Sequence record: PP216085
Length of the DNA stretch: 64,000 nt
Source of the DNA: Escherichia phage vB_EcoM_HZ_ZJUN4
Direction: 5' to 3' (one strand)
This document shows, piece after piece, positions 34,351-35,690 of this stretch (position 1 is the stretch's first letter; each line of letters opens with the position of its first letter). The notes below the pieces were generated by a model. The model worked only from the letters and a program-made list of their open reading frames with translations. It was not told where the DNA came from and made no database searches. Position numbers and translations under genes: made by a program.

Positions 34351-34911
34351 ATGATTAATAAAATTGTACATGAAATGGCTTTAAACGGAGATTCATATAA
34401 AATATCTGCCGTAGTTGAGAATTTTATACTTAATAAAGTAAAAGAATATTTCACTGATTGTTCAGTTAATTATCAAGAAAAAATGGTTTTAACTGACGAT
34501 ACTGAAAAATCAAATAATTTGTTTTGTTCGAATTTTACCACTAAGAAGCGTACTAGACGGTTTGATATTGTTATTGCTCGTAATGGTAAAAAGCATATAA
34601 TTGAAATCAAACACCAAGTTGGTGGAGGTACAGCTATTGATTCGGTTGGAATATATTTAGAAGATAAAGATAAATTAAAAGAATACACAAAAACTGAAAA
34701 TCCTGTGTCATTGATGATATTAGATTTTTTGCCATGCGGATATTATCCGCGTAATAAGTGGACAAAAAGAGAATCATTTACTAATAATCCAACCATCCAA
34801 GCAAGGTTTAATGAATATGCTAAATCACAAAACGTGTTAGTATTACTATCAAATGCATATGATGAAGAATTATATAATTCGTTTTTTGCTGCAATAAATG
34901 AGAGAATATAA
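34351..34911 (+). CDS. hypothetical protein with PD-(D/E)xK-like nuclease motif, translationally coupled to dam
   Basis: 186 aa; [21 protein letters not shown] (D...E-x-K spacing typical of restriction-endonuclease fold); stop overlaps dam start. Confidence 0.5.
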
Positions 34912-35690
34912 TGCTAGGAGCTATCGCGTATACAGGTAATAAACAGTCATTATTACCTGAACTTAAGCCTCATTTTCCAAAATATGACAGATTCGTGGAT
35001 TTATTTTGTGGAGGTTTATCAGTGTCTTTGAACGTCAATGGTCCTGTATTGGCCAATGATATTCAAGAACCAATTATTGAAATGTATAAGCGTCTTATTA
35101 ATGTATCATGGGATGACGTTTTAAAAGTAATAAAGCAATACAAACTATCAAAAACATCAAAAGAAGAGTTTTTGAAATTACGTGAAGATTATAATAAAAC
35201 TAGAGATCCTCTTTTACTTTATGTTCTTCATTTTCACGGGTTTAGTAATATGATTCGTATAAACGATAAAGGAAATTTTACTACTCCGTTTGGAAAAAGA
35301 ACTATAAACAAAAATAGTGAAAAACGCTTTAATCACTTTAAACAAAATTGTGATAAAATAATCTTTAGTTCATTGCATTTTAAAGATGTCAAAATTCTAG
35401 ATGGTGATTTTGTATATGTTGATCCTCCATATCTCATAACAGTTGCCGATTATAATAAATTTTGGTCAGAAGACGAAGAAAAAGACCTTTTAAATCTTTT
35501 AGACTCTTTAAATGACAGAGGAATAAAATTTGGACTGTCGAATGTTTTAGAGCATCACGGAAAGGAAAACGCTCTTCTTAAAGAATGGTCTAAAAAATAT
35601 AATGTTAAGCATCTTAATAAAAAATACGTCTTTAACATATATCATTCCAAAGAAAAGAATGGAACTGATGAAGTATATATTTTTAATTAA
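34911..35690 (+). CDS. dam: DNA adenine methyltransferase Dam
   Basis: 259 aa; motif [12 protein letters not shown], motif IV DPPY. Confidence 0.9.

Follow-up and report, generated by a model that had tools for sequence, protein, structure and literature searches.

The Dam proteins of phages T2 and T4 are among the oldest studied DNA methyltransferases. To our knowledge, the benefit that a T-even phage derives from its Dam has never been clear; T4 dam mutants, as far as we know, show normal growth, and glucosyl-hmC is already there to protect the DNA of these phages. The locus discussed here raises the question of whether the gene immediately upstream of dam holds the answer. This gene is an open reading frame (ORF) encoding 186 amino acids in a 64,000-nt stretch of Escherichia phage vB_EcoM_HZ_ZJUN4 (sequence record PP216085), hereafter the window, which is a genome segment of a Tequatrovirus of the T2/ACG-C40-like kind. 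Its interest lies in its location, beside a classic orphan methylase in a classic model phage: if Dam supplied the modification activity of a restriction module carried by the phage, the purpose of the T-even Dam would become directly testable. The ORF is present in 163 phage records (tblastn), nearly all of which list it as a hypothetical protein, with a single record calling it a putative restriction endonuclease, and we found no description of it in the literature, a mention in the 1988 T2 dam sequencing paper being possible.

The ORF–dam pair and its distribution

The pair is embedded in a row of genes on the + strand, beginning with gene 61, which encodes the primase (33021-34049), and continuing with the 186-aa ORF (34351-34911, ATG start), dam (34911-35690), and gene 56, the dCTPase gene, as the next gene after dam. 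The ORF matches phrog_8706, a family listed as function unknown, from end to end (E 1e-113), and the sequence reads GAGGA, a ribosome-binding site of the Shine-Dalgarno type, at 34339-34343 (+), 7 nt 5' of its ATG. The dam product is a D12-class N6-adenine DNA methyltransferase of 259 aa (Pfam PF02086, E 1e-50) in which the DPPY and FxGxG motifs are intact and which is 97.7% identical to T4 Dam. The TAA of the ORF (34909-34911) and the ATG of dam (34911-34913) have one base in common (ATAATG), and the resulting TAATG stop/start overlap (34909-34913, +) has the geometry of translational coupling.

The same arrangement recurs in other lineages. A D12-class methylase lies directly 3' of it in all eight lineages compared, namely the window, T2, MX01, KPV15, and those that we label P0007, P0009, P0011, and P0014. 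The spacing between the two genes is zero or negative in all lineages but one (six of seven in one tally), the exception being the T2 laboratory strain with its 1-nt frameshift, and an overlap as tight as that of the window or tighter is found in MX01, P0007, KPV15, P0011, P0014, and the P0009 locus L009. The pair occupies three different genomic sites: the interval between genes 61 and 56 in Tequatrovirus, MX01, and the P0007 contigs; the rIIB-denB region in KPV15, where it lies 3' of rIIB and denB and the phage's own 61/56 site is empty; and a position immediately 5' of rIIA in the P0014 contig. ORF identities between pairs of lineages are closely correlated with those of the associated Dam proteins (r = 0.94), the ORF being the faster to diverge. 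The earlier note on this DNA, made from the sequence alone, had described the ORF stop as overlapping the dam start, which is correct to the single shared base, and had proposed looking for co-occurrence of the pair in related T-even genomes, where a Dam-type methylase indeed always follows the ORF immediately, in three contexts and with the correlation just given. Its broader claim, that the two genes have the architecture of a restriction-modification or methylation-sensing module, is supported by adjacency and co-inheritance in the eight lineages, cleavage being predicted; the note allowed for cleavage that is blocked or licensed by methylation, and the sequence evidence is compatible with either. 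In KPV15 (L001, 2075-4322), the pair is found in the rIIB-gene 39 interval, two genes downstream of a gene for a DenB-like endonuclease IV.

As judged from its substitution pattern, the 186-aa ORF is a real gene under purifying selection, with pairwise dN/dS values of 0.13 against T2 (dS 0.21, unsaturated) and 0.20 against Dhakavirus MX01. Some copies are damaged. That of the T2 laboratory strain (L010, PV648363, 1501-2046) has a 1-nt deletion near its end, which leaves 181 aa with an altered tail and a 13-nt gap before dam, and since it is frameshifted this allele is unsuitable as a reference; in phages G4500, G29, and ERS-1, frameshifts split the ORF in two.

The family has a narrow distribution. 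The identifiable carriers are all T-even-type phages, comprising Tequatrovirus, Dhakavirus MX01, Jiaodavirus KPV15, and a metagenomic phage with rIIA/rIIB. A profile search run exhaustively over 1.84 billion representative proteins returned 11 matches, which are members of the phage family, fragments or assembly chimeras, together with one spurious repeat protein (P0016), and it revealed no bridge to bacterial enzymes. A scan of IMG/VR gave two loci only, and the genomes of 185,579 bacterial and archaeal species contained no relative of the ORF. The spurious protein, a highly repetitive metagenomic sequence of 765 aa, matches the family profile in seven stretches through a short motif (E 3e-8), and we rejected it as a relative, as it looks like a tandem-repeat artefact. 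Judging by gene content, the DNA is glucosyl-hmC DNA in every carrier whose genome was checked (the window/T2 type and KPV15); for KPV15, this follows from its genes for dCMP hydroxymethylase and glucosyltransferases.

Fold and affinities of the 186-aa protein

The candidate catalytic residues of the ORF product are E23 (34417-34419), D72 (34564-34566), E85 (34603-34605), and K87 (34609-34611), all on the + strand, of which the last three belong to a D...E-x-K string covering residues 69-89. A string of this kind readily arises by chance by itself; here it stands above chance because its residues are invariant, they are placed in the modelled core, the gene is under purifying selection, and the spacing to the methylase has been kept. 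Across nine aligned homologues, the most distant of which share about 30% identity, all four residues are invariant, and so is a KHQ-x-GGTAIDS stretch that follows them.

An AF2 (AlphaFold2) model built on seven family members (mean pLDDT 78.7, pTM 0.77) places its elements in the order alpha-beta-beta-beta-alpha-beta, that is, a helix, three strands, a helix, and a strand, with E23 in the first long helix (helix 1), D72 in strand 2, and both E85 and K87 in strand 3. The Foldseek matches to this model are nearly all PD-(D/E)xK-type nucleases, and the best structural neighbors are type IIP restriction enzymes, those close to the ORF product belonging to the EcoRI branch: MunI (PDB 1D02), BstEII, NgoMIV, BsoBI, and PspGI. 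The modelled protein is a single nuclease domain, to which no winged-helix reader of m6A like that of DpnI is attached. By its modelled fold, the 186-aa protein is thus a member of the PD-(D/E)xK superfamily, for which DNA cleavage is predicted. The suggestion from which we started, a D...E-x-K arrangement as in nucleases of the restriction-endonuclease fold, is accordingly borne out at both levels, as D72...E85-x-K87 with 13 residues from D to E and as a core of the expected topology with the corresponding Foldseek matches; the fold and the conservation of the D, E, and K residues had both been set beforehand as points on which the idea could fall, and both hold, the conservation across the nine homologues and to about 30% identity. 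A relationship with the MutH-like GATC nucleases (MutH/Sau3AI) was considered and rejected on structural grounds. In sequence searches, the family profile has no match among all PDB chain sequences even at E <= 10, NCBIfam returns only noise matches to folate enzymes, and Pfam and phrog searches found no GIY-YIG, HNH, or LAGLIDADG similarity.

The sole sequence affinity of the ORF is with the catalytic core of DpnII, a GATC restriction enzyme of the type IIP DpnII/MboI family, and it is weak, sub-threshold, and largely carried by the catalytic motif. Of the seven family members scanned, four have DpnII (PF04556) as their best Pfam family (E 8e-5 to 2e-3), always at positions ~143-233 of the 278 in the profile; the three most divergent members have no DpnII match, either in Pfam or with the DpnII HMM. 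With 17.8 bits for the window ORF and 22.5 bits for the best member, that of P0009, both scores lie below the 23-bit gathering score, and membership of PF04556 is ruled out by the family's own criteria, the matches being neither above 23 bits nor full-length. The PADLOC REase_II model gives E 3.6e-5 against the ORF, and the window ORF scores higher against the DpnII HMM than all of 2,700 shuffles, which the divergent members do not. An hhalign comparison of the ORF family with an alignment of the DpnII family gives E 5.5e-4 with a probability of only 30%; in it, the E of MEN, RFDFVI, and IEVN of DpnII fall opposite E23, D72, and E85, respectively. The DpnII-family proteins, which include a database entry named S. 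pneumoniae DpnII, were retrieved with a DpnII sequence that served only as bait and that Pfam assigned to PF04556 (E 3e-100).

The resemblance extends to the order of features, both proteins having an E in the first helix, an RFD-hydrophobic-VI strand 2, an IE-x strand 3, and then a glycine-rich loop, and the C-terminal domain of DpnII having a secondary-structure order equal to that of the ORF model. The methylases also correspond, as DpnM, like the partner Dam here, belongs to the Dam/D12 family and has GATC specificity. The differences are nevertheless substantial: the ORF protein lacks the ~140-residue N-terminal half of DpnII (186 aa against about 280 aa), DpnII has N where the ORF has K87 of ExK, and the ORF family is found in T-even-type phages only. 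The gene order differs as well, since the DpnII locus runs methylase, methylase, nuclease, whereas in the window the nuclease precedes the methylase and overlaps it. Beside plasmid-borne relatives of T4 Dam, none of four plasmids inspected carries a DpnII-type partner, and three of the four carry an AlwI-family enzyme. From these comparisons it is plausible, though short of demonstrated, that the ORF product descends from the same stock as the DpnII catalytic domain and has diverged and become shorter.

Gain, loss, and decay of the cassette

Comparison with close relatives delimits the mobile unit precisely. In a BLAST comparison of the T6 gene 61-56 interval with the window, the colinear match of T6 ends at 34256 and starts again at 35692, T6 having no sequence in between, such that the intervening 1,435 bp (34257-35691, +), comprising promoter, nuclease ORF, and dam, constitute a cassette. 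AR1 has an empty site as in T6, and in both phages the interval holds only gene 61, a small minus-strand ORF, and gene 56. The promoter is a putative one of the sigma-70 or T4-early type (34297-34325, +), found by a consensus scan and consisting of (G)TTTACT, a 17-nt spacer, and a TG-extended TATTAT; it has 9 of 12 consensus matches plus the TG extension, such sites being no more frequent in the region than expected from shuffles. That the cassette has an early promoter of its own is suggested by this consensus match only.

T4 represents a decayed state. Alignment with T4 (AF158101) shows that a segment of 549 bp (34283-34831, +), containing the promoter and codons 1 to about 160 of the ORF, is deleted there, and that the deletion is flanked by the near-repeat TC(G/A)CAAA. 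Upstream of the T4 dam, which likewise occupies the interval between genes 61 and 56, the partner ORF is thereby reduced to an unannotated remnant of codons 159-179 (the last ~21-28 codons), whereas in the window the partner gene is intact. A query for the T4-type junction was fully covered in 42 records. Among 507 phage records matching the region, both genes are present in 146 (about 29%), dam only in about 42 (about 8%), including T4, and neither in about 319 (about 63%), including T6, where the first class is a coverage count, the last is the remainder, and a handful of records were inspected directly. The ORF was not seen without dam in any of the 507.

The ORF and dam thus form a 1.4-kb unit that has been gained or lost as a block and has landed at three or more T-even sites. 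A restriction-modification pair would be expected to behave as seen here, where the nuclease is lost and the methylase kept but the opposite never occurs; this is the usual route from such a pair to an orphan methylase, and the joint movement of the two genes suggests that the T4 orphan Dam is what is left of a phage-borne restriction-modification system. The locus would in that case provide a natural series for the origin of an orphan methylase, with an intact module in T2-type phages, a decayed one in T4, and none in T6.

Several features of the flanks were observed in passing. A minus-strand ORF for a hydrophobic protein of 66 aa (34046-34246; phrog_2024, function unknown) runs toward gene 61 and overlaps it by 4 nt, and has conserved counterparts in T4 (where AF158101 leaves it unannotated), T6 (labelled dam.1), AR1, MX01, and KPV15; being kept with or without the nuclease-dam cassette, it belongs to the primase side. 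Inside it, about 160 nt past the gene 61 stop, lies a terminator-like hairpin followed by a T run (34209-34234, +), which could insulate the cassette from upstream transcription, and T4 has kept this hairpin and lost the cassette promoter. On the other side, the gene 56-soc interval, which adjoins the cassette, is a further indel hot spot, with two small ORFs (55 and 67 aa) in the window (36269-36669), the segF homing endonuclease gene in T4, and two small ORFs in T6.

Possible roles of the pair

The explanation that we favor, and to which we give about even credence, is that the 186-aa nuclease and Dam constitute a phage-borne type II restriction-modification-like module, in which the nuclease is a compact PD-(D/E)xK endonuclease and probably a distant relative of the catalytic domain of the DpnII-family GATC enzymes. 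The ORF product, with E23, D72, E85, and K87 as its catalytic set, would cut DNA at GATC sites that lack N6-methyladenine, while Dam would methylate the phage's own DNA and keep it safe. We infer all three elements of this scheme, namely DNA cleavage by the protein, GATC as the site, and the block by N6-methyladenine. Its targets would be any non-Dam-methylated DNA in the infected cell, with co-infecting or superinfecting phages, Dam-less T-even relatives, and hosts without Dam as candidates; alternatively, the cassette could simply enforce its own retention.

Several observations count against such a module. Enterobacterial hosts are Dam-positive, so a GATC enzyme that is sensitive to methylation would leave their DNA uncut, and glucosyl-hmC blocks most type II enzymes, so in the carriers that were checked Dam may be needless for self-protection. 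Furthermore, the nuclease gene comes first in the cassette and there is no control protein. Given a host that is already methylated and a phage that is already shielded by glucosyl-hmC, the likely targets would be other, unmarked DNAs or Dam-less T-even relatives. Site avoidance does not help to decide the matter: among the 16 palindromic tetranucleotides, GATC falls furthest below expectation in the window (70 observed, 206.6 expected, ratio 0.34), followed by TCGA (0.56), and in 50 kb of Dam-less T6 (L018) the GATC ratio is 0.33. The idea that Dam-less T6 is more depleted than the cassette-bearing window was rejected on these figures, and because depletion is equal with and without the cassette, GATC avoidance is uninformative about it.

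The closest known parallel is the GATC system CviAI of chlorovirus PBCV-1, formed by R.CviAI (A579L) and M.CviAI (A581R), which is likewise a restriction-modification pair of a lytic virus with a GATC target and early expression (PMC7248222), the pair described here being a predicted one. PBCV-1 is, by contrast, a eukaryotic giant virus, and the likeness meant here is one of organization. Virus-encoded GATC restriction-modification is already known from this example, and type II systems in general are well known. The DNA of the PBCV-1 host is unmethylated at GATC and so offers a clear target, whereas the host here is enterobacterial and Dam-methylated, and the phage DNA is additionally glucosyl-hydroxymethylated.

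The state of the host DNA could also be turned around, such that the protein is a methylation-directed nuclease following the logic of DpnI or MutH, which cuts or nicks only those GATC sites that combine a methylated or hemimethylated adenine with an ordinary cytosine. Dam-methylated host or competitor DNA would then be degraded and glucosyl-hmC phage DNA spared, with the phage Dam topping up the target mark. Fully Dam-methylated enterobacterial hosts would indeed be an abundant target, glucosyl-hmC in the checked carriers would serve as a second mark of self and non-self, the ORF is never seen without Dam, and the KPV15 cassette sits two genes from denB, which encodes a nuclease for cytosine-containing DNA. 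We nonetheless consider this unlikely, as the only sequence affinity of the protein is with DpnII, an enzyme that is blocked by methylation, the single nuclease domain comes without a reader of methylated adenine, and a linked methylase would be largely redundant in a host that is already methylated. The clean presence/absence polymorphism between the conserved genes 61 and 56, and the occurrence of the cassette at three loci, bring to mind instead a free-standing homing-type endonuclease that cuts the cassette-less T-even site, so that repair copies the cassette, with dam as cargo or as protection of the carrier's own target. T-even genomes are rich in intergenic endonuclease genes, among them segF next door in T4 and segH in T6, and the ORF resembles the Seg/Mob homing endonucleases in being an optional nuclease gene between conserved genes, patchy among close relatives. 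It differs from them in being of another fold family and always coupled to a methylase; moreover, to reach three unrelated insertion sites a protein with a conserved core would need three target specificities, dam and not any one flanking gene is the partner that stays constant, the best structural neighbors are type IIP restriction enzymes in place of GIY-YIG, HNH, or LAGLIDADG proteins, and a simple internal deletion removed the nuclease in T4 with dam kept. Homing is in our judgment rather improbable.

Also improbable is that the protein is an inactive or non-nuclease derivative of the restriction fold serving Dam as a DNA-binding partner or regulator, or a generic nuclease whose adjacency to dam is meaningless. 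The gene is certainly dispensable, being absent in the T4 and T6 types and frameshifted in a few copies, and it evolves faster than Dam; however, invariance of four candidate metal-binding or catalytic residues over such deep divergence is not expected of an inactive protein, and coincidence sits badly with the fact that in every lineage, and in three contexts, the ORF adjoins and overlaps dam and diverges along with it. A more specific version of the restriction-modification-like module, which we also regard as improbable, holds that the nuclease has evolved to cut GAT(glucosyl-hmC) lacking N6-methyladenine, and that the pair is a restriction system for war between T-even phages. As far as is known from older work on T2/T4 dam mutants, efficient methylation of hmC DNA is a property of the phage Dam only, so that carriers of the cassette would be protected, and the Dam-less majority (the T6 type, about 63%) would be cleaved in mixed infections and have its markers excluded or converted. 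Such a system would explain why T-even phages carry Dam at all, as well as why the family is confined to glucosyl-hmC phages and the ORF never occurs without dam.

Should the restriction-modification-like module be real, a lytic hypermodified phage would join the short list of viruses with a restriction enzyme of their own, and the enzyme may be a very small (186 aa) new nuclease of the GATC family. The gene is carried, as a "hypothetical protein", by about 150 sequenced phages, including isolates characterized as candidates for phage therapy.
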